DNA from: an uncultured Gemmatimonadales bacterium
GTDB lineage: Bacteria > Gemmatimonadota > Gemmatimonadetes > Gemmatimonadales > Gemmatimonadaceae
NCBI GenBank assembly: GCA_963701965.1
Contig: OY969695.1
Location: 1,632,001-1,696,000 of the forward strand
Direction of reading: 5' to 3'
Length of the DNA: 64,000 nucleotides
A model generated the notes under the pieces. The model was not told where the DNA came from, did no database searches, and saw nothing but the letters and a program-made list of their open reading frames with translations. Shown here in pieces: positions 35,213-55,006 of this stretch. Numbering within the stretch: the stretch's first letter is position 1; every line of letters starts with the position of its first letter. Position numbers and translations under genes: made by a program.

Positions 35213-36354
35213 GGGAAGTACGCCTTGAGCCGAAGCATCGGCTGCTCCAAGCAATACCAACTCGCAAGCGCGACCGCGAAGCTCGCCGCGACGCCGAGCG
35301 CGCTGAACGCCAACTGCGCCGGCAGGTGGGAGCCGAGGACGGCCGGCGCCGCGTCGGGCGCGAGGCCGCGGGCGTGGAGGAGACCTATGATCGGGAAGTG
35401 CACGACGTAGAGGCCGTAGCTGTAGCGGCCGAGGGTCCCGAGCGCCCGGCTCGAGAGCACGCGCTGCGTCCGGGTGCCGGCGTCCGCCGTCATGGCGGCG
35501 ACGACGAGCGCGGCGCAGATGGCGGCGATCGCGCTGTAGCCAAAGATCTCGAACTCCGGATAGTCGCGGTTGACGCTCGATCGCGCGACGAAACTGACCG
35601 TGATGAACAGCGTGCCGACCACTCCGGCGGCCGTCACCAGGCGATGCCAGCGCCGGAGACCGCCGTCGCTGCGCGCCGCGATCGCCAATAGCGCGCCGAC
35701 CGCGAGCGTATCGATGCGCGTGGGGGTCAGCACCCATGCGGCCATCGGGCTCGCGTGGGCGAGCCAAAGGCCGGCGCGCAACAGCGGACAGATCACGAGC
35801 AAGGCGACACAGATCCGTGTCAGCGTCCGTCGGTTGGCGAGGAGCACGACCGTCGGCCATAGCAGATAGAACTGCTCCTCGACGGCCAGCGACCAGAAAT
35901 GGGACGATCGCATCGGCGCCGCATCGAACCCATGCCACGCGATGAGATAGTTGGTGGTATAGGTCCAGTACCAGCCCTGGACGTGCCGGATGTTCGTGGC
36001 CGCTTGGGGAAATCGCGCCATGACGAGCGGGAGGAACGACGCACTGACGACCAGCGCCACGCAGATATAGTAGAGCGGGAAAATGCGCAGCGTGCGGCGG
36101 GCGTAGAAATTCCGGAAATAGCCGGGGTGGCCCTTACTGTCGAGCAGGATCCCGGTAATCAGGAAACCCGACAGCACGAAGAAGAGATCGACGCCCGCCC
36201 ATCCCCAACTCGTGATCTCGGCGACCACCTGATCGACGCGGGCGATCGGTGCGCTCCAATAGGCGGTGTGGAGCATCAGTACGGCCGCAATGGCTACGCC
36301 CCGGACCCCATCGAGGGTCGCAACGCGCGCGGATTCGTTCAGCGCTGGCCGCAC
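35140..36354 (-). CDS. Acyltransferase family 3 (OafA/YrhL-like)
   Basis: LDGVRGVA, GVDLFFVLSGFLIT, FYARRTLRIFP, HFWSLAVEEQFY and GRYSYGLYVVH motifs. Confidence 0.92.
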   Translation of the reverse strand: MRPALNESARVATLDGVRGVAIAAVLMLHTAYWSAPIARVDQVVAEITSWGWAGVDLFFVLSGFLITGILLDSKGHPGYFRNFYARRTLRIFPLYYICVALVVSASFLPLVMARFPQAATNIRHVQGWYWTYTTNYLIAWHGFDAAPMRSSHFWSLAVEEQFYLLWPTVVLLANRRTLTRICVALLVICPLLRAGLWLAHASPMAAWVLTPTRIDTLAVGALLAIAARSDGGLRRWHRLVTAAGVVGTLFITVSFVARSSVNRDYPEFEIFGYSAIAAICAALVVAAMTADAGTRTQRVLSSRALGTLGRYSYGLYVVHFPIIGLLHARGLAPDAAPAVLGSHLPAQLAFSALGVAASFAVALASWYCLEQPMLRLKAYFPYGSTRGPARASSSAVGPRAAPSI

Positions 36355-37063
36355 ATGTATACGGTACCAAGCGGGACAACAGGGCACCAGGCCGGATCCG
36401 GCGTGCGTTATTGCTTCGCCAAGTCCCCCAACATTGGTCGACGTCAACCGGGGGACGCGGAATTTCCGCGAGGACGGTTCCCTTGCCTTATCGACCGGCG
36501 ATTGCACATCGAGTCGTGCGGAATGAAACGGCGGACACCTTGTTGACGGTCGCTCCCGCCGTGCACCCGCTTTTGCCATTCTTGCTCGTGTTGGTCGGCT
36601 CGACCGGCCGGCGGCTGGGCAGCGTTCTAGGCCTACGCTGGACTGACGTCGACCTTGAGCGGCGTACGATCGTTTGGCGTGCGGCGCTCGACAAAGGACG
36701 GAAGACCTGGCAGTCACCGCTTCCAGAACTGGCGGCGACCGCGCTGCGCGAACGGGCGCGGGCGGTGGGATGGTACAGTAACGCGTACATCTTCCCTGCT
36801 CCGAAGAAGCCCGCCGTGTCGGCGACCCGACATCTCGCGGCGGTTTGGCTCCGGCGAGCGTACCGGATCGCCAAGATCGAAAGAGAACTGGGCGGGCTAT
36901 GGCACCCGTTTCGGCGGAAGTGGGCGACGGAGCGAAAGCACTATCCGGTGACGGACGTCGCGGCCGCAGGCGGTTGGCGCGACATCAACACGCTGCTCAC
37001 CTGCTATCAGCATCCCGACAGTGACACGATGCGCGCCGTCGTGGAGCTGAGCCCACTCGGGAG

Positions 37064-37087
37064 AAACGTACACACGAACGTACACAC
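37064..37087 (+). repeat. 12-bp tandem direct repeat, putative integrase arm-type site of the older island
   Basis: AAACGTACACAC-GAACGTACACAC, at the same position relative to att as the repeat at 54846. Confidence 0.6.
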
Positions 37088-37102
37088 CTCAGCGATAAAC
37101 GA

Positions 37103-37138
37103 ACTGGCGCCGCACGAGGAAGCTCGCACGGCGCCAGT
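37103..37138 (-). terminator. Hairpin downstream of the tRNA fragment (former tRNA terminator)
   Basis: Perfect 10-bp outer stem ACTGGCGCCG/CGGCGCCAGT; the inner mismatches become G-U pairs on the minus strand. Confidence 0.55.
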
Positions 37139-37148
37139 AGTTAGTTAG

Positions 37149-37193
37149 GTCGGGGCGACTGGATTTGAACCAGCGACCTCCTGCTCCCGAAGC
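37149..37193 (-). repeat. att site: perfect 45-bp copy of the 3' part of tRNA-Pro
   Basis: GTCGGGGCGACTGGATTTGAACCAGCGACCTCCTGCTCCCGAAGC is identical to 54932-54976. Confidence 0.97.
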
Positions 37194-37294
37194 TGGCTCG
37201 GAAGGTCACGAGTTTTGACAATTTGACGGACGCTAGAGGGAAACCGGGCATCGGTGCCGGGTTTTCGCGTTGTTCTCGAAGCAGTCTGCCGCAT

Positions 37295-38512: not shown

Positions 38513-39891
38513 TCGTGAGCAAATCGTTGGGGACATGTGCCGGCTTTCTCTACCCCTGCGTACTGAGTCTCTCGGCCGTTACGTCCCTGGCCCAGGGACC
38601 TTCGAACGCGACACTCGACCATGCGAGACACGCGGTCGTGCGAGTCGAAGTTGACGGCTGCGCCGCCGCTTCCCACTACGGAACAGGATTCTACGAGCAA
38701 TCGACCCACAATGTGGTACCGCGTATCATGTGATTGCGGGCTGCAAGGACATTGTCGTCGTGTCCGCTATGACCGGTGCACATCGCGTGGCGAGCGTGAC
38801 GCATGTGCTGCGGAAAGCTGACCTCGCGCTCCTGGCCGTCGACAATGTACCCGCGAGTACCACAGAGCTGGCTATCGGTACACCAACATATAACGCACAA
38901 GACCAGTTGATGGCGCTGGGCTATCCGTTACAGGCACCAGAGGTTGGAAGTGCCAAGCTCACGTACCGATTTGGCGCTCACACGTTACGGGGTATCCTCT
39001 CGACAACGCTGCAGAACCAAGTGCGGTCGGCAGGTGTGCCCGACTTGGATCTGCCGCTCGTCAGCCTCGATGGACACCTCCTGCCAGGCTTGTCGGGGGC
39101 ACCGATTCTGGATGCGCGTGGCGATGTCGTCGCGATCGGCGATGGTGGTGTCGACGAAGGTGCCGCCAGCATAAGCTTCGCGATCCCATCAGATCACATA
39201 CAGGCGCTTGCGGCCTCATCCGAAGCACTGAACGCGCCAGAGACGACGAGACTCACCGTTCTGTTCGCGGCTGACTTCGATTCCAAGGTCGGAACGAGCA
39301 CCCAATGCGGGCAAACGTCGTTCATACGCGTGCGCCAACGCTCGCTCGCCGATATGGCGCAGACAACAGACGATCCGTTTGGGCTCCAACAGCTACTGAC
39401 TGTCTTTCACATCGCCCCTCAGCAAGATATCCGGTTCGACGTATACCAAGACACGGCGTCGACCGCCACGTTCGTCTTGCCCGCAGGCGCCCAACTGCGC
39501 TACGCAAACGGATTCTGCAGCGCGCAATTGACTCCGGATATTGAGATACGACCTGCTCACGCAGACCGGCGGGCAATGGTTCATCGATCCCACGGTTACG
39601 TACCATGCAGCCGTTCAGCGACCGGATGGTTTGATTGCGATGAGAAAGGCCTGGTATCAGGTCAGTCCAATCACCGGCATATCGCCCCCTGAACGGTACG
39701 TCTTCGAAGTAGTCGCCCAGAAGCGCAATACGCTCCTCGGCTCATCCCTCACAAACGTGAACAACAGAGCGTTCGGTCAGTGTCGGCTTCAACCAATCGC
39801 TCCGGGCTGCGCGCAGCTCCTTCAACAAGACCAAAGCGCTTGGGAGAACGGAGTGCTCGCCATTCACCTGACGACATTTCCATCCAACTAG
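38509..39891 (+). CDS. Secreted trypsin-like serine protease; frameshifts near 38717 and 39545
   Basis: GTGF, TAYHV (His), DLALL (Asp) and PGLSGAPI (Ser) motifs; signal-like N-terminus. Confidence 0.75.
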
Positions 39892-40032: not shown

Positions 40033-40735
40033 ATGGAACCGCCCGACGAGCCATTGGACCGCGAGAGATTCCCTATACTCCGCGTCCTACCCGAGGCCGT
40101 CCTACGCGTACTGCGAAGACATTACTACGCGGGCGTGAAGGAAGCCGAAACAGGATTCCAGTTTCACGTGGCGGATGAAGATGCGGTGACCGGCGCTCTG
40201 GGAGAGCGCTTGATCGAGCCGCCAACGTGGATAACGGTGGATGGTCAGGAGTACATGTGGCGCACGTCCTACCATAAGCTGCGCGGCCGCGGCGCCAATG
40301 CCCCGGAGAAGCGCCTTGGCGCCAATGGTATCTTCCAGCTGGAAGTGCTGGGTCTGACCGGACGATTCAATGTGCGCAAGGGATTGCTCTTCCAGTCAAA
40401 AATCGGCTGGCAGGGCAGCGACTCGCAGTTGCTGGGGCAGGCCCGTACTCTGCTGGAGCTGTCGAGATCCGCAATCGTTATCGACTACGCCCCGGATGGG
40501 TACAAGGCGGTGGCGGCGACTGATGTTGTTGCAGCCAATGGAAACAGTAGACGAGTACGTCCCAGAGCAGCCCGGCAACTGGCAGAAGTGCTGGGGGATG
40601 GGCTCGTGAGCTGCACGAGGCGAAAATGGCCTCTATTGGGACGCGGAGCAGGAGCGGCTTGTTGTCGGCGGCGAGCGTGTCTCCGAGCTCGTGCCCGCAA
40701 GCGTCACAAACACGAGAATTGAGCGGATCCGGTAA
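40033..40735 (+). CDS. Putative PD-(D/E)xK-fold nuclease; apparent frameshift near 40620
   Basis: DEDAVTG...EKRLGANG...KGLLFQSK pattern resembles E...D...QxK nucleases. The C-terminus continues GLYWDAE in another frame. Confidence 0.5.
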
Positions 40736-40958
40736 GCACTTGGAGGCGGGAACAAGGATCCCAGGCCTTCTTAAGGATCGAGTGGCCAACGACGCGCGAA
40801 CGACGCCCCCTCTCATAGTCGACGCGAACAAGTACTCCCATGCCCGGACGACGGATCAGCATGTTCGCTTTAGGTTTCGGTACAGCAGGCGTTCATCGCC
40901 GCTAGCTGTTGCCGTCTTGCCGTGAGTATTGTCGCCAGCGACTTCCAACAACGTCAGT

Positions 40959-42179
40959 ATGCGTGGCGAACGAATGTCTTCGAATAGCGAGCTGTTGGAC
41001 TTAGCAGATTCGGCCTTCTGTGACAGGCTAAGGTTTGCGGTCCAACGATCTAGATCGTCGGGCGCCAACACGCTCACCGCGGTCTGTCGATCAGCGCGCG
41101 GTGCGTTTCCTACTTTGGTTGTTGAGACGCTTCGCGAGTTGGAGCCGCGCGCACCGGCGCTTCTTCAGCGCACGTGGGCCGACGACGAACCCGGGCATGT
41201 CGACTCAGCGCCACCCGCAATGCCGGAGCCTCACCCAATCGACTACGAGTGGCGGTATACGAGGTCGACCGCTGACGCGGTTGCTGCGTACGCGCAAGCT
41301 CTTCCAGGAGACATCGCTTGCGTCGGTACCCCGACAGTGTTCTGGCGTTTGCTACACTCTGGGATCAATGCGACGCTTTTTGACCGCAACGCAGACGTTT
41401 TGCAGTCGGTCGGATCTGCGCCGAAACACAACATCGTGCAGTGCGATCTGCTGGCATCATCGTGGGCGCCTCCCACAGTTGGCGCCTTCGGCGTGGTGAT
41501 TCTCGATCCACCATGGTACAGCGATCACACCCGCCTTTGGATCGCAAGAGCATTGCATTTGGTTCGACCGGGCGGGCGCCTGCTGGTCACATTGTTCCCC
41601 GAGCTCGTACGTCCGTCCGCGCACACCGAACGGCTTGAGCTGTTGGAATTGATGGAGTCCATCGGGAGAGTTAGTACACTGCCGTTTCCGGCCCTGTACG
41701 CGACCCCACGTTTCGAGAAGGAAACTCTAGACGCGCTAGGTTTTGCCGGTCTCGGGCAGTGGCGTTCTGGCGATCTGCTGGAAGTCGCCATCAATGCCAA
41801 CCCGCCAGCTATTGGTGCCGGCACGCCCTCAGAATCCACCTGGGATCGCGTTCAGCTCGGTACCCAGGTCGTCGCGGTTCGACGAGACGTGCCGAAATTG
41901 GGGCCGAGCGATTCAAAAGCTCAGCCGCTCAAAGTATCGCCGGTAATGCGAGATGGGTCCTACCTCTTGAAATCCGTCAGCGCAAGGGACGCGACGCGGT
42001 GTGACATCTACCTTTGGACCTCGCGCAATCGTGCGTTACGCGCCGACAATGGCGCGCCGACTCTGCTGCCATTCCTCCAGTGCTTGGAACGTGGCGAATC
42101 ACCTCGGACAGCTATCGACGCCGCGCCCCACGGCGACCGCAGAGCCCTCGAAATCGTCGTCGCCGTGATCGGCTGGTAG
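40959..42179 (+). CDS. SAM-dependent amino-methyltransferase-like protein (DPPW motif)
   Basis: IACVGTPT (motif I-like), LFDRN, VVILDPPWY (motif IV) and LVRPGG motifs. Start uncertain (40929/40959/40974). Confidence 0.7.
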   Translation: MRGERMSSNSELLDLADSAFCDRLRFAVQRSRSSGANTLTAVCRSARGAFPTLVVETLRELEPRAPALLQRTWADDEPGHVDSAPPAMPEPHPIDYEWRYTRSTADAVAAYAQALPGDIACVGTPTVFWRLLHSGINATLFDRNADVLQSVGSAPKHNIVQCDLLASSWAPPTVGAFGVVILDPPWYSDHTRLWIARALHLVRPGGRLLVTLFPELVRPSAHTERLELLELMESIGRVSTLPFPALYATPRFEKETLDALGFAGLGQWRSGDLLEVAINANPPAIGAGTPSESTWDRVQLGTQVVAVRRDVPKLGPSDSKAQPLKVSPVMRDGSYLLKSVSARDATRCDIYLWTSRNRALRADNGAPTLLPFLQCLERGESPRTAIDAAPHGDRRALEIVVAVIGW

Positions 42180-42207: not shown

Positions 42208-42243
42208 TTGACATTGGTCCGACACAACGATATTGTTGTGTCG
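42208..42243 (+). promoter_or_regulatory. Sigma70-type promoter with overlapping palindromic operator; probably a leaderless transcript
   Basis: TTGACA (42208), 17-bp spacer, TATTGT (42231). Perfect inverted repeat CGACACAAC-N6-GTTGTGTCG (42220-42243). GTG start lies 6 nt after the -10 box. Confidence 0.75.
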
Positions 42244-42680
42244 TGATTCCGCCTTTTGGCGTGAGCGGGAATCTTCCGCCCGGTATTCATGTTGCGACGT
42301 GGGACGAGGTGACAACTCGGCTGGGTGCTACTTCCCAGCGCCGACGGCTTGTCGCCGGTCTGCGACTGGGATTAGCCCAACTTCGACTCGCTGGCTGCGC
42401 GCGGGCTTACATAGACGGAAGTTTTGCGTCGAGTGAACCGACTCCGGGCGATTTCGACGTCTGCTACGAAACGCGCGGTATGGATCCGCAGTTTCTCGAT
42501 CCCGTGTTCTTCGACCAACGATCCAACCGCGCCGCGCAGAAGGCCAAGTACGGCGGCGAATTCTTCCCGAGTTTATTCCCGGCTGCGGTGGGGTACACGT
42601 TTCTTCAATTCTTCCAGGTGGATAAGCGCACCGGCGACGCCAAAGGCATCGTGGCCATAGATCCGAGGGACGTGCCATGA
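42243..42680 (+). CDS. DUF6932-like minimal nucleotidyltransferase (Pol-beta fold)
   Basis: GNLPPGIH, YIDGSFASSEPTPGDFDV (GS...DxD), FFQVDK and KGIV motifs. Confidence 0.85.
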   Translation: MIPPFGVSGNLPPGIHVATWDEVTTRLGATSQRRRLVAGLRLGLAQLRLAGCARAYIDGSFASSEPTPGDFDVCYETRGMDPQFLDPVFFDQRSNRAAQKAKYGGEFFPSLFPAAVGYTFLQFFQVDKRTGDAKGIVAIDPRDVP

Positions 42681-44196
42681 TCAAGAATGAGCGACAGTAT
42701 CGAATTGCTACGGCCGAAGCCGCGCGTTTCAGCGAGGCTCTAGCCTCACGTCCTAACGCGCCTCCGGAGAACTCGGACATCGATCCACGCTTTTGGGACG
42801 CGGAAACGGAAGCCATGCACGCGCAGCTAGAGGAGCTACGCGCAGAGCTTTCAGCGTACGATGCCCTGCAGAGCGGAACTCACCGACTCTTCGACGTGCG
42901 TGGTTGGCAAGACGTGCCGCGCGCACTCGTGCAAGGTCGCATCGCTATGGGGCTGACCCAGAAGGATCTTGCAGAGCGCCTTGAACTTCCCGAACAGACG
43001 ATTCAACGGTACGAAGCGACCGAGTATGCGGCTGCCAGTTTGTGGCGACCCGTGATATCGCGACAGCGCTAGGTCTCGAACTGTCCGGTTTCACTATCGC
43101 GCCTGATGCGGAGCCAACGCCATCACGCTTTTTCGAGCATCTCAAGGAAATCGGACTTGATAGACGTATCGTCTCCGAGAATCTCCTCCCACCGGCGCTC
43201 GCATCAGCTATGCTCGCACCAGCCAAGGCTAGGACCAAGATATATGGCGCAGTAATGCAAGTCGCTGGTCTCGTAGAGCGTATTTTCGGTATTCCTCCTT
43301 CGGTGTTATTCGGCAACGAGCCTCTAACAGCATTTGTGGTCCCAGCGACTGCGGCCAGATTCAAACGACCTAAGGTCCGAACAAAGGCGAACGTCGATCG
43401 CCAAGCAATCACCGACGGTTACACGTTTTTTGTACACTATCTCGCGTTGCTAGTACTGGAGACAACGAGCCATTTACCGCGCGAACCGGTTCCAGAGTCG
43501 CCTCAAGAATGGCGCAGTCGGATTCTGAGGCAATTTGGCAGCTTGGAATTCGAGCATGTCGTACAGTTCTTTTGGAGCGTCGGAATTCCAATCCTTCCGC
43601 TGAGGGACAGCGGGATTTTTCATGGAGCTTGCTAGCGTATCGGCGGGCACGAAGTCATCGTGCTAAAGCAACGCACGCTTTCGGAGGATCGATGGACGCT
43701 GGATGTGCTCCACGAGGGTGGCCATATTGTCCAAGAGCCCCTTAGCGAATCGTTTCAGATTCTCGAGGACGAAACTCCCTGGTTTGATGATCCGAGAGAA
43801 CAGAACGCTACACGCTTTGCCAGCGAGATCTTACTGGACGGGAAAGCGGATGCTATGGCAGAGCGCGCGGTCAATTTAGCGAATAACAATGTTCGTTTTC
43901 TCGAGCGCGCCGTGCGAAGAATTGCGGACGAAGCCAGCGTACCGCTCGGTGTGCTGGCGAACTATCTAGCCTATCGGATTGCCGCGGATACACGGGATGC
44001 TTCCGAGCCGATTAACTGGTGGCCAAGTGCGGCACGTCTGCAACGTCAACGGAATGATCCATGGAAGATTGCACGCGACGCGCTTCTTGAGCATGCAGAT
44101 TTTGCTAGACTGAATCCAATTGATCGAGACCTGCTTGTTCGGGCTCTCATGGACCCTACTGTAGAACCCGCGGCGAAGGGAGGAACCAACACATGA
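42677..44196 (+). CDS. XRE-family HTH fused to ImmA/IrrE-like Zn metallopeptidase; 1-bp frameshift near 43050 and in-frame TAG at 43633
   Basis: MIKNERQY, GLTQKDLAERL...IQRYE (HTH). ORFs 43042..43635 and 43660..44196 share one frame (FHGAC*RIGGHEVIVLKQ). HEGGH and downstream E (REQNATRFA) present. Confidence 0.8.
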
Positions 44197-44927
44197 CCGA
44201 TGCGCCAAATAAGCTAAAGATCTCGTGCGGCACGGTCGATTGTGAGAATGGACTTCACTGTTATCTACGCACGAAGCGTGAGGCTCAGAAAGCAAGCCGA
44301 CAAGTTCGGTCAACGAGAGCGATCAACGGGACAAACGCGGCTGAAATGAATAGCAGTTCAGAGGTGGCATCGCCCAAGACCGCTGGATTTGATACTGGCC
44401 TGTCAATTGGAGATGTGGTTCAAAAGAGAGCGACATCACGACAATGTAAGGCCTGCGGCGTGAATCTTGTGGACTGGGAGCGCATCGGACAACGCGATAT
44501 CCGCAATGTGAAGCACACGTTTCAAGCCATGCGTACCGAGTGGATTCGGCACTATTTCTGGCACGTATCCATCGACAGCGTGGCAGTAGACTACGCATTC
44601 CGCAAAGGGAAACAGCAATTACGCGAACGCCTAGCAGGTCGTATTCGAAGTGCAATTGGAAAGTCAGCAGATCAACTCTTCCGCAATGGTGCGCAGACGC
44701 CGCTAGGCACAACCCCGAGGGCAGAGAATATCATGTACTTTGCGCAACATGCGACGGCGAGCTGCTGCCGCAAATGCGTTGAAGAATGGCACTCGATACC
44801 CCGGAATCGAGTCTTGTCAAACGAGGACATCGAATATCTCACAGACTTGGGTATGTGCTACATACTGGAGCGACTACCAACACTGCCGGAGGACGCAGCT
44901 GCAGTTTCCACTTCGGACGGCGAGTGA
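44193..44927 (+). CDS. DUF4186-like protein with extra N-terminal Cys/His cluster
   Basis: GAQTP, AQHATASCCRKCVEEWHSIP and LSNEDIEY motifs; N-terminal CxxxxCxxxxHC...CKAC. Confidence 0.8.
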   Translation: MTDAPNKLKISCGTVDCENGLHCYLRTKREAQKASRQVRSTRAINGTNAAEMNSSSEVASPKTAGFDTGLSIGDVVQKRATSRQCKACGVNLVDWERIGQRDIRNVKHTFQAMRTEWIRHYFWHVSIDSVAVDYAFRKGKQQLRERLAGRIRSAIGKSADQLFRNGAQTPLGTTPRAENIMYFAQHATASCCRKCVEEWHSIPRNRVLSNEDIEYLTDLGMCYILERLPTLPEDAAAVSTSDGE

Positions 44928-45033: not shown

Positions 45034-46002
45034 ATGAGCCCACGCGGAGTGATCAAGACAGATTCGTATTCCGCTGAACTTCGAGCACGAGCTATCGACC
45101 TAACTCAAAAGCGCGTGCTCATCGCTGATTTGCGCGGGAGCCAACAAGCAAAGGATCTAACCGTTCCGCCAAACTGCAGTGGCTACGGCAGGATCCGTCA
45201 TTTTTCTAGAAGGACGATACCTGACTGGCCACCGAACTCATTGCCGATCGACCCGGCTTGTGCGGCACTTGGCTTGTCCCGCTCGGATGCTCTCAATGCC
45301 CAAGTGTTTCAGAATGCGGCCTGCAATTGGCGTTGCTGGTACTGCTATGTTCCGTACGAACTCCTGTCCGCCGATTCGAAGCGGGGCGCCTGGCTTTCGG
45401 CCGATGATATATTGGACCTGTATTTAAAGGAGCCTGAACAGGCTCGAGTCATCGATTTGAGTGGCGGCCAGCCCGACCTGGTGCCCGAGTGGTTGCAATG
45501 GATGGTGGAAGCGGTTGAATCGCGTGGGCTTGAGAAGCAAGTCTATCTGTGGTCGGACGACAATCTCAGCAACGACTACTACTGGCAGTATTTGACGGAA
45601 CACGCTAGGGAAGCAATTTCCTCCGCGCGCAACTATGGCCGCGTATGCTGCTTCAAGGGATTTGATGATCGGTCATTCTCATTCAACACTCAGGCGGCAT
45701 CAGACTTGTTTAGTCGACAATTCGAACTGTTCGGCCGCCTCATGTCCGAAGGGATTGATCTATACGCTTATATGACGTTCACGACGCCTTATTCGAATGG
45801 CATCGCAGACGCCATGACGCGTTTCGTCGATCGCCTGCAGGAACTTAGCCCCAACCTTCCCTTGCGCGCCGTGCCGTTAGAGATTCGTCCGTACACGCCA
45901 ATGCAAGCTCGCATTGGCCCGCAGGAGGAACGTGCACTCGATCTTCAGCGAGTCGCGTGCGAAGCTTGGCTGCGGGAGATCGACCGACGTTTTCTCGGCT
46001 AG
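45034..46002 (+). CDS. Radical SAM enzyme of unknown substrate
   Basis: CNWRCWYC (CxxxCxxC) at 45322-45345; DLSGGQP (GGE-motif variant). Confidence 0.9.
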   Translation: MSPRGVIKTDSYSAELRARAIDLTQKRVLIADLRGSQQAKDLTVPPNCSGYGRIRHFSRRTIPDWPPNSLPIDPACAALGLSRSDALNAQVFQNAACNWRCWYCYVPYELLSADSKRGAWLSADDILDLYLKEPEQARVIDLSGGQPDLVPEWLQWMVEAVESRGLEKQVYLWSDDNLSNDYYWQYLTEHAREAISSARNYGRVCCFKGFDDRSFSFNTQAASDLFSRQFELFGRLMSEGIDLYAYMTFTTPYSNGIADAMTRFVDRLQELSPNLPLRAVPLEIRPYTPMQARIGPQEERALDLQRVACEAWLREIDRRFLG

Positions 46003-46053
46003 CGAGCGCAATGTACCGATCAATGCCGTCGCGTTGCGACCGACCAGGATCCC

Positions 46054-46593
46054 GTGATCGACTTCGGACTGCTACAAGAGGCGGTTCGAGCAGATTCATA
46101 TTGGTCGGCGTACCTACGGAGCTCGGGCGAGCGTCAGGCAATTCGGATGCACCTTGCGATCTTCGTTGAGCCTTTTCTTGGCTTTGTTCTCGATGGCAGC
46201 AAGACGATCGAATCGAGATTTAGCGTCAACGCGACCGCCCCATACGGCCGCGTCTCCCGCGGTGACGTGGTTCTTCTCAAGCGATCTGGTGGGCCAATTT
46301 GTGGCATATGTCAGGCTGCCAATGTCTGGTACTATGAGCTCGACAAACGTGCCTGGCGTGAGATTCGTCGTCGATTTGCGACAGCCTTGCGACTCAATGC
46401 GCCTGACCTCAAGGATCGTTGCAATCGCGCCAGCTACGCCACTCTTATTCGCCTAAAGCACGTCTCGCCGACGCTGCCTATTGGCGTTGCGAAACGCGAT
46501 AGACGCGGGTGGGTCGTTCTGACAGAATCGAACCATCTGCTCAACCTGTTCGAATATTCGGAATGTCGGCAGGCTATTCGATACTCTCGTTGA
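46054..46593 (+). CDS. ASCH (PUA-like) domain protein
   Basis: HLAIFVEPFL...LDGSKTIESRF (GxKxxExR), GDVVLLK and RDRRGW motifs. Confidence 0.85.
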   Translation: MIDFGLLQEAVRADSYWSAYLRSSGERQAIRMHLAIFVEPFLGFVLDGSKTIESRFSVNATAPYGRVSRGDVVLLKRSGGPICGICQAANVWYYELDKRAWREIRRRFATALRLNAPDLKDRCNRASYATLIRLKHVSPTLPIGVAKRDRRGWVVLTESNHLLNLFEYSECRQAIRYSR

Positions 46594-46707
46594 TTGGAGC
46601 AAGAGTGGTGAGCGTTCTCGCGCCACGTCGTGCATTCTTGTAGCTAGAAGATAGCCGTCGAGGAATACCCGGTTTCAGTTCACATCTTCGCTAGGTAATC
46701 GTCTCAG

Positions 46708-47289
46708 ATGAGGTTGACTGTTATTGGGATCGCGGGGCATGCCAAGAGTGGCAAGAGCACGTTGGCTCAGGCGTTATCGGATCGACTGGCGCTTCCACGC
46801 GTTAGCTTCGGGACCGAAATACGAAAGATTGCTGGAGAACGCGGCGAGCCCGTCACGGACCCAGCACGCGCGACCGAAAGAGCGGTGCTCATGCGTCACG
46901 GAGAACATCTCGTTGCGCATGAGACGGAAATGCTCTGCCGTCGGGTTATCGCCCAAGCAAACTGGAGAGAAAGAGGGGGCGTCATCATAGACGGCATACG
47001 ACATGTCGTCGTCGTAGAGACTCTTCGTCGAATTCTATCGCCGGTGTCGCTGTTCTTGATTCTGGTTAACACCTCCGCGAACGAACGCGAGCAGCGTTTC
47101 GTCGACGCCGGGCTGGGTCCTTTGACACGCGCCGTCATGGACGCTCATTCAACTGAGCGCGAAATTCCAGACGAGATCGCGTTACTCGCGGATCAAGTAG
47201 TCGACGGAGCAGTTGACGCCAGCGTCACTGTGGACGCGGTAGTCGCAGCTATCGAAGCACGGTCCTTGTCGCGCGGCGTGCCTGATTGA
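46708..47289 (+). CDS. P-loop nucleotide kinase-like protein (NMP/dephospho-CoA kinase fold)
   Basis: VIGIAGHAKSGKST (Walker A), SFGTEIR, VIIDGIRH and HSTE motifs. Confidence 0.85.
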   Translation: MRLTVIGIAGHAKSGKSTLAQALSDRLALPRVSFGTEIRKIAGERGEPVTDPARATERAVLMRHGEHLVAHETEMLCRRVIAQANWRERGGVIIDGIRHVVVVETLRRILSPVSLFLILVNTSANEREQRFVDAGLGPLTRAVMDAHSTEREIPDEIALLADQVVDGAVDASVTVDAVVAAIEARSLSRGVPD

Positions 47290-47313: not shown

Positions 47314-48309
47314 CTAGTACGGTATACTGAAGTCCTCGTGCACAACGATCGAGGCGAATTCGTGCACGCCGTTTGGTCTCACCCAGTAGTGTAGGTGGAA
47401 CTCGTAATCAATGTCGCGACGCCACGCGCGTGCACCGTCAGTTTGGCGAACTAGGTCCGGGTCGTTGCCGCCGTTGCCGGTCCGGAGTCAATGTGGCTTC
47501 CCAGTGTTCAACTGCAATAGTGTATCAGCGCTCGCGTTCAGCAGTCGCTCGATCTTGGCAGTCTCATGACAGAAACCAAGGGCCTGTGCGGACTGCAGAA
47601 ATTCGGACCCTAGAGCACAAATAACATTGATCGGCCAGATAAGTGCACCGCCCTGCATGGCCTGGCGTTGAGCAGTTCGCATCTCGATCGCAGCTCGCTC
47701 GCAACCTGACAGTTGCCAAAGCGCGGAAGCACTCTCCAGACCAATGAAGCCGGCCAAATTCTCAACCAGCGCGGCGTCGATACGATACTCCGTCTCTTCT
47801 GGCTCATTCGTTTCCACGCGCTGGATAAGAGCTGAGCCCATCACAGTGACCGCAAATGTTGTGTTTGCGGTACCTCGCGTCCACACAATCGGGTCCCTAC
47901 CTCCAGCTTGCTCCTGTCGGAACGCCGCCAACCCCAGGAGGTGGTGATGGTGTTCAATGAACAATTGCGGTCGATTGACAAGATGCGAGTCGGGATTGCA
48001 TGCGGATGTTACGCATACCAATTCGACGACTTGTGCGACGTCTTCGGCGGTGGTGCCGCCTAGCAAGGAGTAGACCAGGGTGACGATATCGTGGCGCGCA
48101 ATCTCGCGAGAATGCGGGCCTCCAACCCAGACCGGATAACTCTGTGTTTTTGCGAGGAGTTCGCTGGCATCAGCGGCGGAAACGATTCTCACCCATCGCT
48201 GCTGCTGCAATCGCCGCAACTCCAACAGTTGTGATACGTATTCGTCTCTTGCGGCGGTCGTGTCGGAATCGAGCGCGACAGCATACGCGTCAAGATACAC
48301 ATCAGGCAT
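47314..48309 (-). CDS. ATPase-associated effector with putative C-terminal RelE-like domain; in-frame TGA at 47488-47490
   Basis: The start overlaps the ATPase stop. After the TGA the same frame continues LRTGNGGNDP...AWRRDIDYEFHLHYW...EFASIVVHEDFSIPY*. Confidence 0.65.
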
Positions 48310-50185
48310 TCTGATTATTACCCGGCCGACTCCGCCGCTTCCGAATCCCCGCTTCAAGAATCGACGCTGCTGAGTTCTCCGTTTCATCGAAAAACCCTAC
48401 CGGCCACTCTTCAAGCACTCCATACTCGTTGACGATTACACGGCGATATTGTGATTGCCTGTCGATCTGTTCGACAAAGTAAAGTGCGATCGAATCCGCC
48501 ATGGTCGGCTCGCTCGTTGCAGCGGCCCAATAGCGAAGGCGATTGACCAAGTGCTCGCTGTGTGTCTCTACCACACATTGCTTGCCGAGTCGAGCCATGG
48601 CAACGAAGAAGTCTGCCAAACGTGTCTGTGCCTTCGGATTCAGATGCACCTCTGGTTGTTCGAATAACAGTGTAGCACCGGACGGCGCCACGAGCGCCAT
48701 CACTAGAACCGGAAGAACTTGACTCACACCGATGCCTACCTGTGTAAGGTCAAACTCCGATCGAAGTTCATAACCAAGTCGGCCTATACTCACACTAATT
48801 GCTTCACTCCCTACGCCGAGAAATGCAAGCCATTCGTTGACTGCTTGCAGAAGATTGACCTCCGTCTGACCTGCCAGGTTGCGGTCAGCTACGAATCTCT
48901 CTGGAGGCAAATGGGGCACCTTAGCTTCACTGTAAAGATCGAGCACGGCTGCCGTGTGCTCGCCACTCACTCCGACATCCCACGATTCGGACCCGCCGAC
49001 AAGCGGGTAAACGGTGCGGGGCGCGGTCCGGATGGGTCCGAGATAACGAACAGAGGTGACGAAGAAATCACGTATCGCTAACGACGAGTCTCGTATGACA
49101 GGTGGAAGCTGCCGGTGCTCAGCGGCCTTCAGACCAAATTGTGTGACACGAACTGCGCGTAGCAGATCGTCCCTTCGGTCTGCTAGCGCTTTTGCGAGCT
49201 GTCGCCGATAGTCCGGCCGTAGTGTGCGATAACTGGCAACGAATTGTGCGGTGGAAAACTCCAGTTGCTCGAGCAGCGCGGCAGCGGACTGCGCGTCCGG
49301 CGTTCCTATTGATTTGAGAACTTGCAGCAGTATGGCCCTGACTTCGGCATTTAGGACTTGGTCAGCTTCAGTCGCAAGCGTGTCTCCCGGCGGATCGTCC
49401 AACTCTTGGACGGACTCAAGTAGCGCACTAACAAACGAATTAGATGCGCGCTCTGCGGCATCATATACGACTGTGATTCTTCTTGGGAGGAAATGAGTGA
49501 GAGATGCTCCAACCGGCATATCGCTACCGGATCGTCTCCGCGACCGATCAGCAAAATCGACAACCTCGTAGTCGAAGGACTCAAGGACTCGAGACGGGAC
49601 GCGACCTTCGATACCGAGACCCAAATCAACTAGTCGATTAACCCGCGGCGACCCTAGCCGCCGCATGTGGATTCCGGCACCAGGTGGCCGTTCGCTCATG
49701 GATCGAAGGTCGGCGTTCGTCCTGCTAGCACGACTATCTCCGATGTCGACCCACGACTCCAGCCGCGACTCGTGAAGATCGGGATGAAGCTGGGGCAGTC
49801 GTCGACCATCTGTAGATGGGGCGATAAACGCGTAGGAACATCGGACGAGCGCTTGCCGCGATGTATCGCTTGGCCAGAACCTCCCAGCGAATGATGCGAG
49901 TCGCTCTGATGAAACCCTCAGCGAGAACCCGATCTCCACGATTGTGCGCTCTGCGTACCTACAGCGCACGTCTTCAAATGTGCCCAACCGCACGAGAGGA
50001 CCATTAAGAATAACCGGCATATTGTTGAGAGGACTGCGCAGCGTTTGCGCGGTCATCAGGATGCTCTGGATGACGGTGCTCTTTCCCGCGCTATTAGGAC
50101 CGGTCAGTATCGTTAGCGGCGCCAGCGTCAGCAATGTATTGGCTTGTACGGATTTGAAGCAGTGCAATCGCCATTCAATGAGCAT
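48302..50185 (-). CDS. ABC-type AAA_21/DUF3696 family ATPase
   Basis: FKS, GPNSAGKS (Walker A), VGIGVSQ (signature), LLFEQPEVHL (Walker B/D-loop), VETHSEH (H-loop) and WPVGFFD motifs. Confidence 0.9.
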   Translation of the reverse strand: MLIEWRLHCFKSVQANTLLTLAPLTILTGPNSAGKSTVIQSILMTAQTLRSPLNNMPVILNGPLVRLGTFEDVRCRYAERTIVEIGFSLRVSSERLASFAGRFWPSDTSRQALVRCSYAFIAPSTDGRRLPQLHPDLHESRLESWVDIGDSRASRTNADLRSMSERPPGAGIHMRRLGSPRVNRLVDLGLGIEGRVPSRVLESFDYEVVDFADRSRRRSGSDMPVGASLTHFLPRRITVVYDAAERASNSFVSALLESVQELDDPPGDTLATEADQVLNAEVRAILLQVLKSIGTPDAQSAAALLEQLEFSTAQFVASYRTLRPDYRRQLAKALADRRDDLLRAVRVTQFGLKAAEHRQLPPVIRDSSLAIRDFFVTSVRYLGPIRTAPRTVYPLVGGSESWDVGVSGEHTAAVLDLYSEAKVPHLPPERFVADRNLAGQTEVNLLQAVNEWLAFLGVGSEAISVSIGRLGYELRSEFDLTQVGIGVSQVLPVLVMALVAPSGATLLFEQPEVHLNPKAQTRLADFFVAMARLGKQCVVETHSEHLVNRLRYWAAATSEPTMADSIALYFVEQIDRQSQYRRVIVNEYGVLEEWPVGFFDETENSAASILEAGIRKRRSRPGNNQNA

Positions 50186-50531
50186 GTGCCTCCTCGAGCC
50201 GAACGTGAGCGTCACATTGGTGTGCTTCACCATTACAACCTAAGTTCGCGACCTAACGGCCCCACAGTTCTCGGACTCGGACTCGGCCAGCCGGCATCAG
50301 TCCCGCGACCGAAATCGAAGAGGCCGAAAGCTCGGACACTGTCTTCAGAATCCGCAGACGCGAACTGGTCGACAAGCACTCCGACATCGCGCGGCAAATC
50401 GTGCAGATGCACTCGATATCACCTATCACCGGCACCACGGCCACCGAGTAGGTGCGGTCGAGTTCGGGATTGCCGACCTGCATTGTCACGAAGGCATATG
50501 TATGCTCGTCAATTGCCTCCCAGTTCCGAAC

Positions 50532-51297
50532 CTATGTCACATCACCACCACGACGCGCGCTGCGGCGCAGCTGCTCGAGCTCGGCCCGCAACGGCGCCCA
50601 ATATGCGCGGTCAAGCTCCCGCTCCATTGCCTCCTCGGCGGTCAGGGCCTCCTCCAGCCGCACCTTGTCACGCGCAGTGGCGGCGTCCAACAGCGGACGC
50701 TCGGCAACTATTTCGCGCGCAGCGGTTCGGAACCGGTGCACCGCCTCGACGAGTAACACCGGCGTGCGCAGCTCGCGCAACCAGAATCGCGCCTCGGTGG
50801 GCGCAGGACGCGATGTTCCGCCGAGGTAGCTGACTTCCATGAGCCGGCGAATCATCGGCCAGTCCTTGTCCCGCTGAGTCTTCTTAGACACGACGAGATC
50901 GGACAAACCAATCACATTGACGGTGAGACCATTCTGGTAGCGCGCGGGTCTGACGTCGCGACACAAGCGCGCGAAATGGGTCGACCCCGCGGAGGCGCGC
51001 CATGACGTCAATGCGCATGCCCGCGACGTCCGGGCGTTCACACTCAAAATGAATCGCATGACCGCGCTCCAGGTATTGGAGCTCGAATGGTGGCACCGCA
51101 ACGACTCTCGCCTGAAGGTCGGCGAGGGCCGCCTTCAATCGCGAGAGATTGTCAGCGTCTGCGAGGACGGCGAGATCGGTGTCCCGGCTGAACTCCGCTG
51201 CCCCGTACAGAATGCACGCCTGACCGCCGATGAGCAGACTGTCGACGGAGAATGCCCGGATCGAAGAAAGGACTCTGTGTATCGGGCTCGGGCCCAA
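50532..51297 (-). CDS. Nucleotidyltransferase (AbiEii/DUF6036-like); frameshift near 50940
   Basis: LLIGGQACILYG...SRDTDL and RIDVM motifs, then DLVVSKKTQRDKDW in the 50532..51101 frame. Confidence 0.75.
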
Positions 51298-51463
51298 GCG
51301 TGCCTCCCAGGGCGAGATAGTCGACCCACATCTGAGAGCTGGCCGTCCAACGCTCCTCTGGCGTCATACGGTACCAAGCTGCCCATTCGGGCTCGCAGAG
51401 GTCTTCGATTTCGACGCGGCGTCGCGAAACGGCCGCTCTAGACCGACGATCTGAGGGGGTCAC
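51152..51463 (-). CDS. Small partner protein overlapping the NTase (antitoxin-like)
   Basis: EWAAWYRMTPEERW...YLALGGTL.PEPDTQSPF; overlaps the NTase start. Confidence 0.55.
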   Translation of the reverse strand: MTPSDRRSRAAVSRRRVEIEDLCEPEWAAWYRMTPEERWTASSQMWVDYLALGGTLGPEPDTQSPFFDPGILRRQSAHRRSGVHSVRGSGVQPGHRSRRPRRR

Positions 51464-53626: not shown

Positions 53627-54883
53627 CGGCTGGTACAAAGTGGACGGACGATGGGCGCGAGTGCTCGGCGAGCGAGGGTGCCGCGTCCGGCTGTTTGAGA
53701 TGACGAAGGGTGGTCCTTTTTATCGGACTGTGTGGGTCTCGGGTCGCGGGAAGGACCGGAAGTGCCTACACACTTCGGACAAAGCCAGAGCCGAGCGCCT
53801 GGGACTCTCGTTACTCACGTCCCTGCTACAGGGACTGGCTCCAGCACCGGAAACGCCGCTGACACTGGGCGATCTCTGGAATCGGTATCGCACCGAGTGC
53901 CGGACATTCCACGCCACGAGGCCACGGTGGCAGTTGGAGTGCGGGGACGCATGAAGTGCTTGATCGCGTACTTCGGTGCCGGTTGCCAGGTGCGCGAACT
54001 GTCCGCCGACGATGTGGCAGCCTACACAGCCACCCGGCGCGCCGGCGGGATCGTGGTCGACGAGGACTACACGACTGGCGCGGTACGTCCGCGAAGCGTC
54101 GATGTCGATCTTACGTTGCTCAATCGCATCTTGAACTGGGCAGTTTCGGTACGAGTGAATGGCGTTCGACTGCTAGACACCAACCCGCTCCGCGGCGTTC
54201 AGCGCGTGCGGGAGCACAAATCGCGAAGACCGTTGGCGACCTGGGATCGCTTCCTGGTCACACGCAAGGCACTCCGCGAATTGGCGGACGAAGCGATTGA
54301 TGACGCCGAACACCTGCGGTTCGTGAAGATCGAGTTCGCGCTGGTACTCGCCGAAGCTACGGGACGCCGGCTCGGTTCGATCCGCCAGCTCGAATGGTCG
54401 GACATAGATCTGGAGGGCGGCGTGATTCGTTGGCGCGCCGAGGCGGACAAGCAGGACGCTGAGTGCCAGGTGCCGATCCCGGCGGCACTCGGCGAGGAGA
54501 TTCGCGCATTCCGGAAGGAGCTCGCGACGGTCGGCGGGCTATGCTTCCCCTCCGAGCAAGACATCACGGTGGCGATGAGCCGGTATCAGTTCGCCAAATG
54601 GCTCCGGCGCGCGGAGAAGAAGGCGAGGCTGCCGAAACTCGCCGGCGGCCTTTGGCACCCATATCGCCGAAAGTGGGCGACCGAACGCAAGCACCTCGCA
54701 ATCGCCGACGTCGCGGCCGCCGGCGGGTGGCGTGATAAGGCGACGTTGCTCAACTACACCCAACCAACCGATGACGCCATGCTCGCGGTCATGAGCGAGC
54801 CCACCAAGCTCCGAGACGTGGCATTAGCCGGCCAAACGAAGCCACGGAACGGGTCACCAAATGGGTCACGGCCCGAGATGTAA
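53613..54883 (+). CDS. int: Tyrosine recombinase/integrase; apparent frameshift near 53930
   Basis: GGAGG RBS; N-terminus in the 53448..53954 frame; TGRRLGS, WHPYRRKWAT, AAAGGW and LLNY motifs; adjacent to the tRNA. Confidence 0.92.
54846..54869 (+). repeat. 12-bp tandem repeat, putative integrase arm-type site (proximal arm)
   Basis: GGAACGGGTCAC-CAAATGGGTCAC, matching 37295-37318. Confidence 0.75.
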
Positions 54884-54920
54884 AAAACCGGCGCCACTCA
54901 GCAACGCTAAGTGACGCCGG
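54882..54920 (-). terminator. Rho-independent terminator for tRNA-Pro, supplied by the island
   Basis: Minus strand CCGGCGTCACTTAGC-GTT-GCTGAGTGGCGCCGG-TTTTTT: a 15-bp stem with two G-U pairs plus a U-tract. Confidence 0.85.
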
Positions 54921-54932
54921 CGGTTAGATGAG

Positions 54933-55006
54933 TCGGGGCGACTGGATTTGAACCAGCGACCTCCTGCTCCCGAAGCAGGCGCGCTACCGGGCTACGCTAC
55001 GCCCCG
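54933..55006 (-). tRNA. tRNA-Pro (anticodon CGG), CCA not encoded
   Basis: Reverse complement CGGGGCG...CCTGC-TTCGGGA-GCAGG...GGTTCAAATCC...CGCCCCGA folds as a cloverleaf. Confidence 0.97.

Follow-up and report, generated by a model that had tools for sequence, protein, structure and literature searches.

A radical SAM enzyme beside a kinase recalls viperin, the radical SAM enzyme known for antiviral nucleotides, and the locus studied here, within a 64,000-nucleotide stretch of a Gemmatimonadales contig (the window), raises the question of whether its genes make such a compound and, if so, by which chemistry. We found that the enzyme lies at the heart of a mobile operon of seven genes, conserved across many bacterial groups. 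At about even odds (probability roughly 0.5), this operon protects against phages by producing a modified nucleotide, as a poison or as a signal, by a route other than viperin's, a reading in which we infer both the substrate and the role in defence.

A conserved seven-gene operon

The operon encodes a DUF6932 nucleotidyltransferase-like protein, an HTH-M78 peptidase, a DUF4186 protein, the radical SAM enzyme, a DPPWY transferase, an ASCH protein and an NMP-kinase-like protein (Table 1). The radical SAM, ASCH and kinase genes recognized in the first-pass annotation proved real, but that annotation had overlooked another four genes of the operon, upstream of these, as well as the frame breaks described below. 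Across 185,579 species genomes, 258 enzyme matches were confirmed, and we compared 160 loci, the best 80 of 258 and the best 80 of 327 matches. Since these are best-match loci, with several metagenome loci duplicating genome loci, and since the accessory genes probably represent one or two acquisitions each according to the tree, locus counts overstate independence.

In the 68 genome loci whose flanks were long enough, the radical SAM-kinase pair, initially singled out as the core, was the most constant part of the family (67/68), and ASCH travelled with it in 64. HTH-M78 was found in 67, DUF4186 in 66, the transferase and DUF6932 in 59 each, and all seven genes together in 51. Thus, the transferase and ASCH, missing in 9/68 and 4/68 loci respectively, are not obligatory. 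The operon was kept across many phyla at 50-59% enzyme identity, and its members were sometimes fused to one another (ASCH-kinase, transferase-ASCH and ASCH-DUF4186, with DUF4186 in some cases joined to the radical SAM enzyme).

Table 1 Features of the operon and of the integrated element that carries it in the window
Feature	Position	Strand	Description
att direct repeat of part of tRNA-Pro gene	37132..37200	.	left end of integrated element
SAM-dependent transferase	40929..42179	+	D[PA]PWY in 35/35; BpsA-like overall fold
DUF6932 protein	42243..42680	+	GSF..DxD motif in 28/28; candidate toxin
Coiled N-domain + XRE HTH + M78 (ImmA/IrrE-type, HExxH)	42677..44196	+	three pieces here; one ORF of ~485 aa in homologues
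DUF4186 protein	44193..44927	+	extra N-terminal Cys/His motifs, likely zinc sites
Radical SAM enzyme	45034..46002	+	322 aa; PFL-AE-like partial barrel, no auxiliary cluster; uncharacterised family
ASCH (PUA-like) protein	46054..46593	+	GxKxxExR motif; predicted binder/hydrolase of modified base/nucleotide
P-loop NMP-kinase-like protein (AAA_17/18; SSO1041/UPF0200-like)	46708..47289	+	intact Walker A
Tyrosine integrase	53732..54883	+	adjoins tRNA
tRNA-Pro(CGG), integration site	54932..55006	-	repeat copy 54915-54983

In the window, the tRNA-Pro-integrated element with the operon is low in GC (56% versus 65-66%), and the transferase gene, usually located between the radical SAM and ASCH genes, is shifted to the operon front. 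This copy contains three reading-frame breaks. Two lie in the HTH-M78 gene (a frameshift near 43045-43050 and an in-frame stop at 43633-43635). The third is a frameshift at the 3' end of the radical SAM gene, since the frame stops 10 residues past the invariant W312 (22-46 in 35 homologues) and a family-like tail runs on in a different frame as far as the stop at 46055-46057, which overlaps the ASCH start. Split-gene candidates were 12 among 1,343 ORFs with a paralogue; genome-wide frameshifting being low, the window copy is more likely decayed than misassembled.

Partner genes and the predicted product

The ASCH gene does lie between the radical SAM and kinase genes, as first described: the family motif [GE]xKxx[ED]xR was kept in 36/36 members and PF04266 was matched by 18/36 (E<=0.01), the window's own protein having no Pfam ASCH match at that threshold. 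The downstream gene is NMP-kinase-like by its AAA_18 match (E 1.2e-9), and its family profile matches SSO1041/UPF0200 and adenylate kinases. HExxH was present in 35/35 HTH-M78 sequences. The GSF..DxD signature of DUF6932, which we take to be a pol-beta motif, would make this protein nucleotidyltransferase-like; profile searches of the PDB with DUF4186 and DUF6932 gave nothing significant, and DUF4186 had no usable ESM Atlas match. The front pair swaps as a unit, DUF6932 being paired with the coiled N-domain (102 loci) and a DUF4160-like protein with another N-domain (12 loci), and no crossovers were seen.

Accessory genes, counted over the 160 loci and drawn from differing subclades, point to a nucleotide substrate, where a nucleotide or nucleic acid had first been proposed. 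They include a dCTP-deaminase-fold protein with a hydrophobic C-terminus (24/160, 15 of them directly upstream of the enzyme), a dGTPase-like gene (12/160), a MazG-like gene (6/160, all directly downstream; 4/6 passed Pfam at 1e-5) and a deoxynucleoside kinase (2/160), while ThyX stands beside a divergent subgroup. Some loci have a second kinase copy without the Walker A GK, fused to Shedu SduA_C (L110) or Fic (L021) or placed ahead of a RES gene (L045, L145). PADLOC matches at E<=1e-30 were found in the flanks of 14/45 loci, transposon-only matches excluded, in a screen of 109 hand-picked ORFs out of 322 candidates with no background control; the operon's own genes gave weak, partial PADLOC matches only.

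If the operon makes a modified nucleotide against phages, infection would activate the HTH-M78 peptidase, which would switch the operon on and free the front toxin (the DUF6932 nucleotidyltransferase-like protein, or DUF4160 in the variant). The substrate of the radical SAM enzyme would be a nucleoside monophosphate, with a pyrimidine (deoxy)nucleotide the likeliest, in contrast to viperin, which uses a triphosphate; the DPPWY enzyme would methylate an amine on the resulting product, and its phosphorylation would fall to the kinase. This compound may poison phage nucleic-acid synthesis or act as a signal. Its binding or hydrolysis would be the task of ASCH, and variant loci might use kinase-fold or dCTP-deaminase-fold sensors to couple it to nuclease, Fic or membrane effectors. 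More tentatively, the radical SAM enzyme, methyltransferase and dedicated kinase could build the modified nucleotide as a second messenger of a new class of immune system, read by ASCH, P-loop-dead kinase and deaminase-dead dCTP-deaminase domains that engage nucleotidyltransferase, nuclease, Fic and membrane effectors; if so, radical SAM chemistry would serve immune signalling rather than chain termination. Counting against the anti-phage nucleotide reading, the closest fold, PFL-AE, acts on protein, divergent relatives (L085-L088, L090, L158) lack all six partners and have WD40 and/or ThyX genes alongside, and three phage homologues, likewise devoid of all six, sit in sugar-pathway clusters (PfkB kinase, SIS isomerase, TylF).

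Neighbours such as MazG, dCTP-deaminase-fold and ThyX genes typify precursor-level pathways, and the operon might instead put a modified base into the host's own DNA or RNA, at the precursor level or post-replicatively; ASCH would then be its reader and the front pair a toxic restriction-like arm. The DPPW-type motif of the transferase and its second-best fold, METTL5 (Z 16.4), would fit such a role. So would two comparisons: predicted base-modifying (PIN)-GNAT-EVE operons (PMC7641849), found in defence and prophage contexts, also follow a modifying enzyme with ASCH and a P-loop protein of the AAA_17 type, and the phage M6 gp51-54 clusters (PMC8989533) combine a radical SAM enzyme, a P-loop kinase and a group transferase to hypermodify thymidine, likewise acting on a nucleobase. 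However, the former differ from our operon, which has a radical SAM enzyme and a DPPWY transferase but no GNAT, EVE or PIN and resembles them in ASCH and kinase by domain type, and the latter belong to phages and modify DNA using aGPT-Pplase and PLP enzymes, neither of which recurs in the operon. We consider base modification unlikely, as the recurring neighbour clusters included no nuclease or target-recognition gene, the kinase is similar to small NMP kinases, and effector-fused P-loop-dead kinase copies better suit a soluble ligand.

The transferase fold is closest to the branched-chain polyamine synthase BpsA (Z 21.4, rmsd 3.5, 263 aligned), TylF sugar O-methyltransferase genes occur in 9/160 loci, and phage homologues lie in sugar clusters, all of which would accord with a cassette that has no part in phage defence and serves either selfish addiction or the biosynthesis of a small molecule (nucleoside, sugar or polyamine). 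Although the operon transferase shares with BpsA and EEF1AKMT1-type (PF10237) transferases a BpsA-like fold and the DPP motif, GDDD, essential in BpsA (PMC12979288), was present in 0/35 operon transferases. Together with the lack of a transporter among the recurring neighbour clusters and with the effector fusions to Shedu and Fic domains, this makes such a cassette decidedly unlikely.

Placement of the radical SAM enzyme

The enzyme belongs to the radical SAM superfamily, with a CxxxCxxC motif, a partial TIM barrel, a model (pLDDT 92) that matches radical SAM structures and a Pfam Radical_SAM (PF04055) score of 30.9 bits against a cut-off of 29.5. The motifs first reported in it are present at residues 97-104 (CNWRCWYC), 144-147 (GGQP), 173-177 (WSDDN) and 206-209 (CFKG). 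CxWRCWYC, WSDDN and CFKG were each kept in 36/36 close homologues and C97/C101/C104 are invariant; GGQP occurred in 34/36, with GGE, the viperin form, in the other 2/36 and again in 14/45 members of the wider family. WSDDN and CFKG had been taken for additional motifs; aligned with E. coli PflA they fall on LDTNG and DLK, and against a stand-alone relative on LETNG and SLK, which makes them the operon family's forms of core radical SAM motifs. A SPASM/twitch C-terminal cluster is indeed absent, since cysteines occur only at residues 48, 76, 97, 101, 104, 205, 206 and 309, leaving a single one beyond 206.

Fold Z-scores, obtained by re-aligning the top chains from Foldseek, placed PFL-AE (PflA; 3c8f) first (Z 17.4, rmsd 3.1, 230 residues) and ahead of the next family by 3.7 Z units, with QueE at 13.7 and viperin at 12.4 (205 aligned, rmsd 3.2). 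The enzyme was below every curated NCBIfam cut-off among the families matched, including QueE (18.7 versus 260 and 16.3 versus 206 bits) and NrdG2 (16.7 versus 131); for TIGR02495/02493/02491/02494, best member E-values ranged from 3e-8 to 3e-5. It did not fall into a characterized metabolic family, and its homologues retain the kinase and ASCH neighbours, both in agreement with the original proposal. A sequence search of solved structures had no match, a profile search reached E 0.017 at best, and the ESM Atlas returned only generically named radical SAM clusters.

The structural match, the aligned core motifs and an N-terminal GRI-HF strand resembling that of PflA would suit a PFL-AE-like activase placing a radical or cross-link on an operon protein in toxin regulation. 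This is improbable, given 11% identity, scores under the cut-offs of glycyl-radical activase models, accessory genes that are nucleotide enzymes, and no glycyl-radical enzyme, or neighbour of that size, in the 45 largest ORF clusters that recur over 80 loci. The enzyme also has about 80 more residues than PflA.

An NxH directly before the cluster motif, as seen in L170, is viperin-defining, and it was found in 0/45 family members, which read QVFQ there. That the enzyme is a highly divergent viperin making ddhNTP chain terminators is extremely improbable: despite the kinase linkage, an HHalign probability of 96% with a prokaryotic viperin and a viperin model weakly matched by 24/45 members, more than any other model (best E 1.7e-6), the enzyme scored 21.7 bits against the NF038283 cut-off of 180 over residues 94-167 only, its fold is nearer PFL-AE, YAY replaces KIN on the aligned viperin strand, and another family is closer in sequence. 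This family, the nearest in sequence beyond the operon's own, consists of stand-alone Fe-S radical SAM proteins of the L169 type (HHalign 98%, E 4.6e-15, 189 columns), presumably COG5014, which differ from the operon enzyme by GGEP/ETNG motifs, a shorter chain and no operon partners within the 3.6 kb locus seen. The operon family forms its own clade (82/95) in a tree that does not order viperin, PflA and the stand-alone family, all on long branches.

The earlier formula of viperin-like logic in a non-viperin-looking enzyme holds for the kinase linkage and the failed viperin model, but the fold leans towards PFL-AE. Prokaryotic viperins (NF038283; PADLOC pVip) similarly are radical SAM proteins without SPASM beside an NMP-kinase-like gene, mobile and patchy, with defence genes close; in contrast, the operon enzyme fails their family model, has another fold neighbourhood and is joined by five more conserved genes. 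Kinase linkage is near-obligate in the operon, whereas 12% of bacterial viperins have a linked kinase (10.1101/2023.09.13.557418).

Related systems and mobility of the operon

The HTH-M78 protein shares with the RosmerTA antitoxin RmrA and CapP-IrrE peptidases an HTH plus M78 HExxH architecture beside a swappable toxin, but it has an extra toxin-specific N-domain, and its RmrA matches were weak (PADLOC E 6e-5 or worse), scored only on the window's broken pieces. Kongming is a modified-nucleotide-sensing defence system in which a nucleotide serves as signal. A second, viperin-unrelated radical SAM family in fixed company with a kinase, an enzyme of methyltransferase fold and ASCH would suggest new nucleotide chemistry, possibly a new immune messenger, and the operon gives testable contexts for DUF4186, DUF6932 and its ASCH subgroup. 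Literature searches found no description of the operon; the comparative-genomics papers of Iyer et al. in 2013 (DNA base modification systems) and of Burroughs and Aravind in 2016 (RNA repair) might cover it and so bear on its novelty. In PUA-Calcineurin-HAD (10.64898/2026.01.15.699771), a PUA-superfamily domain likewise belongs to a module responding to a modified nucleoside monophosphate; the opening of the abstract names no radical SAM enzyme, whereas our operon seems to encode the synthetic enzymes itself. PMC9679502 only lists ASCH, DUF4186 and AAA genes in a plasmid insertion.

The operon is patchy and mobile. A full-strength match occurred in 1/401 genomes of the host phylum; 50,697 phage records held no enzyme match, and viral contigs gave none with close alignment and four with wide alignment. 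The enzyme was found on 7 plasmid records. NZ_CP076855.1 and NZ_CP063789.1 are examples of records with an intact operon, and since cultured strains of Nostoc, Tolypothrix, Rhizobium and Roseovarius have intact copies on their plasmids, the operon is directly testable.

Operon composition and relatives

The genome-collection scan returned 258 relatives of the radical SAM enzyme, the best 80 of which span Chloroflexota, Cyanobacteria, Planctomycetota, Acidobacteriota, Actinomycetota, Pseudomonadota and Bacillota, plus one archaeon. The commonest gene order is DUF6932, coiled-domain/HTH/M78, DUF4186, radical SAM, DPPWY transferase, ASCH and kinase; seven plasmid records carry the enzyme, and both of the two examined have this order. 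Profile searches of the 68 genome loci with at least 2.8 kb of upstream and 2.6 kb of downstream flank, closest matches and non-independent, found the kinase in 67, HTH-M78 in 67 (the match at locus L051 is perhaps to an unrelated HTH), DUF4186 in 66, ASCH in 64, the transferase and DUF6932 in 59 each, and the complete set in 51. Among 39 metagenome loci with flank, some duplicating genome loci, the counts were kinase 34, HTH-M78 36, DUF4186 36, ASCH 35, transferase 34 and DUF6932 32. Two loci (L051, L058) retain enzyme-transferase-ASCH-kinase and three (L003, L060, L070) front module-enzyme-kinase. Transferase and ASCH are each dispensable at some loci, a point against the nucleotide reading proposed below. 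Given these counts and reduced forms, the enzyme and kinase pair is the constant core, as the first-pass annotation had proposed; its downstream order was also recovered, an ASCH protein (assigned at family level) preceding an NMP-kinase-like P-loop protein.

A divergent subgroup lacking the six partners nests inside the radical SAM family in the tree and adjoins ThyX (loci L085/L088, L087, L090) and WD40 proteins. In this second undescribed system the enzyme is accompanied by a glutaredoxin-WD40 or WD-like protein and, in many cases, by ThyX and a methyltransferase. On three related viral contigs, distant phage homologues of the enzyme are found among sugar-pathway genes, next to PfkB kinase, SIS isomerase and MT-A70 (and TylF in viral contig L082); this counts against the nucleotide reading, since sugars may be the substrates of the wider family. 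These clusters, which also hold methyltransferase and glycosyltransferase-like genes, are candidate phage sugar or DNA modification clusters.

Partner proteins and a candidate anti-phage operon

The transferases keep D[PA]PWY (35/35), match PF10237 in 16/35 and fold more like BpsA (Z 21.4) than METTL5 (16.4). Despite this BpsA-like fold, they lack the GDDD motif described for BpsA (PMC12979288), which makes putative SAM-dependent amine methylation the likelier activity. HExxH was kept in 35/35 intact HTH-M78 homologues and GSF..DxD in 28/28 DUF6932 proteins. Among 160 loci, likewise closest matches and non-independent, DUF6932 accompanied the coiled N-domain of HTH-M78 in 102 and the alternative N-domain in none; DUF4160-like small genes accompanied the alternative N-domain in 12 and the coil in none. 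Pfam DUF4160, which we take to be a toxin, was confirmed at two loci (L052, L018). This exclusive pairing (102 versus 12 loci) suggests that the front pair consists of an interchangeable toxin and a matching antitoxin domain, the latter fused to a peptidase-regulator.

Accessory nucleotide enzymes differ between subclades of the 160 loci: a dCTP-deaminase-fold protein in 24 (15 directly upstream of the enzyme), a MazG-like gene directly downstream in 6, a dGTPase-like gene following in 12 (mostly related cyanobacteria), TylF in 9 and a deoxynucleoside kinase in 2 (one locus, duplicated). Since the tested dCTP-deaminase loci form one clade in the tree, as do the tested MazG loci, recruitment amounts to about five events, not dozens. 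Ten aligned dCTP-deaminase-fold proteins all end in a hydrophobic segment; of the E. coli Dcd positions that we take to be catalytic, R115 occurs in a single protein, and S111 and E138 are absent from all ten. Such proteins are candidate nucleotide-gated membrane effectors. Walker A GK is missing from 9/136 kinase-profile matches, and second kinase copies without it are fused to Shedu SduA_C or Fic, or placed before a RES gene. From these dead enzyme folds joined to effectors, we infer that the ligand may be a soluble nucleotide.

The best explanation, which we put at a probability of about one half, is a hitherto undescribed anti-phage operon in which the enzyme set would act on a monophosphate to build a modified nucleotide; once phosphorylated, this would serve as poison or signal, with the peptidase-regulator controlling the operon and the toxin as effector. 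Its logic is like that of viperin-plus-kinase and other systems based on modified nucleotides, in keeping with the earlier proposal of viperin-like logic with a different enzyme, but it belongs to none of those tested. In the papers that it covered, a literature search found no description of the operon. That the operon instead modifies the host's own nucleic acid is unlikely, and a cassette with no role in defence is distinctly so.

PADLOC was run on 109 flanking ORFs picked by hand out of 322 candidates at 45 loci, and 20 matched at E<=1e-30. With a transposon-only locus dropped, these cover 14 of the 45 loci; both figures are raw counts, uncorrected for background. The matches comprise type I and IIG RM, pAgo, AbiE, Pycsar cyclase, SoFic, dGTPase and helicases; TIR, HNH and a CRISPR-like repeat array also lie close to operon loci. 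At L007 and five more cyanobacterial loci, pAgo and a Cas4-like nuclease lie divergently upstream of the operon.

The radical SAM enzyme

A search at E<=0.001 gave 3,422 homologues of the enzyme; the top 119, the enzyme itself excluded, share 56-64% identity with it. CNWRCWYC, GGQP, WSDDN and CFKG were present as annotated and near-invariant across 36 aligned homologues, and no cysteine cluster lies beyond residue 206, consistently with the reported absence of a SPASM-type cluster. WSDDN and CFKG are not additional motifs, as had been thought: in profile alignments with PflA and a stand-alone relative they fall on the LDTNG/LETNG and DLK/SLK strand ends, and are therefore family versions of core motifs.

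The structure model (pLDDT 92.4) best matched PFL-AE (Z 17.4, rmsd 3.1, 230 aligned), followed by QueE (13.7), spore photoproduct lyase and RlmN (13.1) and viperin (12.4). PFL-AE acts on protein, which counts against the nucleotide reading and for a protein activase, an alternative we nevertheless consider improbable. HHalign against single sequences ranked the stand-alone uncharacterised protein L169 first (98%, E 4.6e-15), prokaryotic viperin L170 second (96%, 9e-9) and PflA third (86%, 4.7e-6). A divergent viperin is very improbable, given an NCBIfam score of 21.7 against a cut-off of 180, the lower fold score and the absence of NxH ahead of the cluster motif in 45/45 family sequences, in agreement with the initial impression of a non-viperin enzyme. 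The triphosphate-binding KIN strand of viperin aligns with YAY in the family. No cut-off was passed among the NCBIfam families matched, and the family forms its own clade (82/95), with outgroups on unresolved long branches. Cut-offs, fold ranking, HHalign, missing NxH and clade together make the enzyme a member of an uncharacterised family, by membership neither viperin, QueE nor glycyl-radical activase.

The copy in the window

The window holds all seven genes in a 56% GC stretch flanked by 65-66%; in this copy the transferase has been relocated to the front. The genes are enclosed by tRNA-Pro(CGG) and a 69-bp repeat of it, and each end of the element has an integrase. HTH-M78 is broken by a frameshift and a stop, and the radical SAM frame has lost its tail. 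Only 12 split-gene candidates were found genome-wide among 1,343 ORFs with paralogues; set against three breaks within 3 kb, this suggests real decay. Among 401 genomes of the host phylum, the source genome alone gave a full-strength enzyme match, and one genome had the distant stand-alone type.

Positions of features in the window and at compared loci
Location	Position	Strand	Feature
Window	36249-37148	+	Second tyrosine integrase
Window	38730-39891	+	Trypsin-like protease ORF (other frame, 39541-39891)
Window	40033-40722	+	229-aa ORF
Window	40929-42179		Transferase
Window	near 43045-43050		HTH-M78 frameshift
Window	43633-43635		HTH-M78 stop
Window	45034-46002	+	Radical SAM protein, 322 aa
Window	near 45990		Loss of radical SAM tail
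Window	47488-50233	-	AAA_21/DUF3696 ATPase and 299-aa ORF
Window	50532-51463	-	Overlapping ORFs
L085	5465-9930		Divergent subgroup
L086	2975-7698		Divergent subgroup
L087	472-6385		Divergent subgroup
L090	157-2113		Divergent subgroup
L158	437-2702		Divergent subgroup
L082	6617-15775		Viral contig, distant enzyme homologue
L083	6589-11817		Viral contig, distant enzyme homologue
L084	6858-14937		Viral contig, distant enzyme homologue
L007	4218-7246		pAgo, Cas4-like nuclease
L049	9219-9992		dCTP-deaminase fold, C-terminal hydrophobic helix (others exist)
L075	9206-9976		As L049
L080	1-729		As L049
L110	5986-7611		Kinase copy, SduA_C fusion
L021	13356-15104		Kinase copy, Fic fusion
L045	13310-14897		Kinase copy before RES
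L145	11290-12700		Kinase copy before RES

The second integrase adjoins the left att repeat and shares 74% similarity with the right-hand one across 112 bp; the two suggest tandem integration at tRNA-Pro. The protease ORF continues in another frame and may be a further broken gene on the element. Just 5' of the transferase, the 229-aa ORF matched nothing in Pfam, PADLOC or NCBIfam and by eye resembles a restriction-endonuclease fold. The 643-aa ATPase on the element (PADLOC NsnB, E 1e-70; HEC-03B, PDC-M55A) and the following 299-aa ORF, without family match, look like a separate two-gene defence candidate. The overlapping ORFs, which have no Pfam match, look like a frameshifted nucleotidyltransferase-like gene and a small partner upstream of it.
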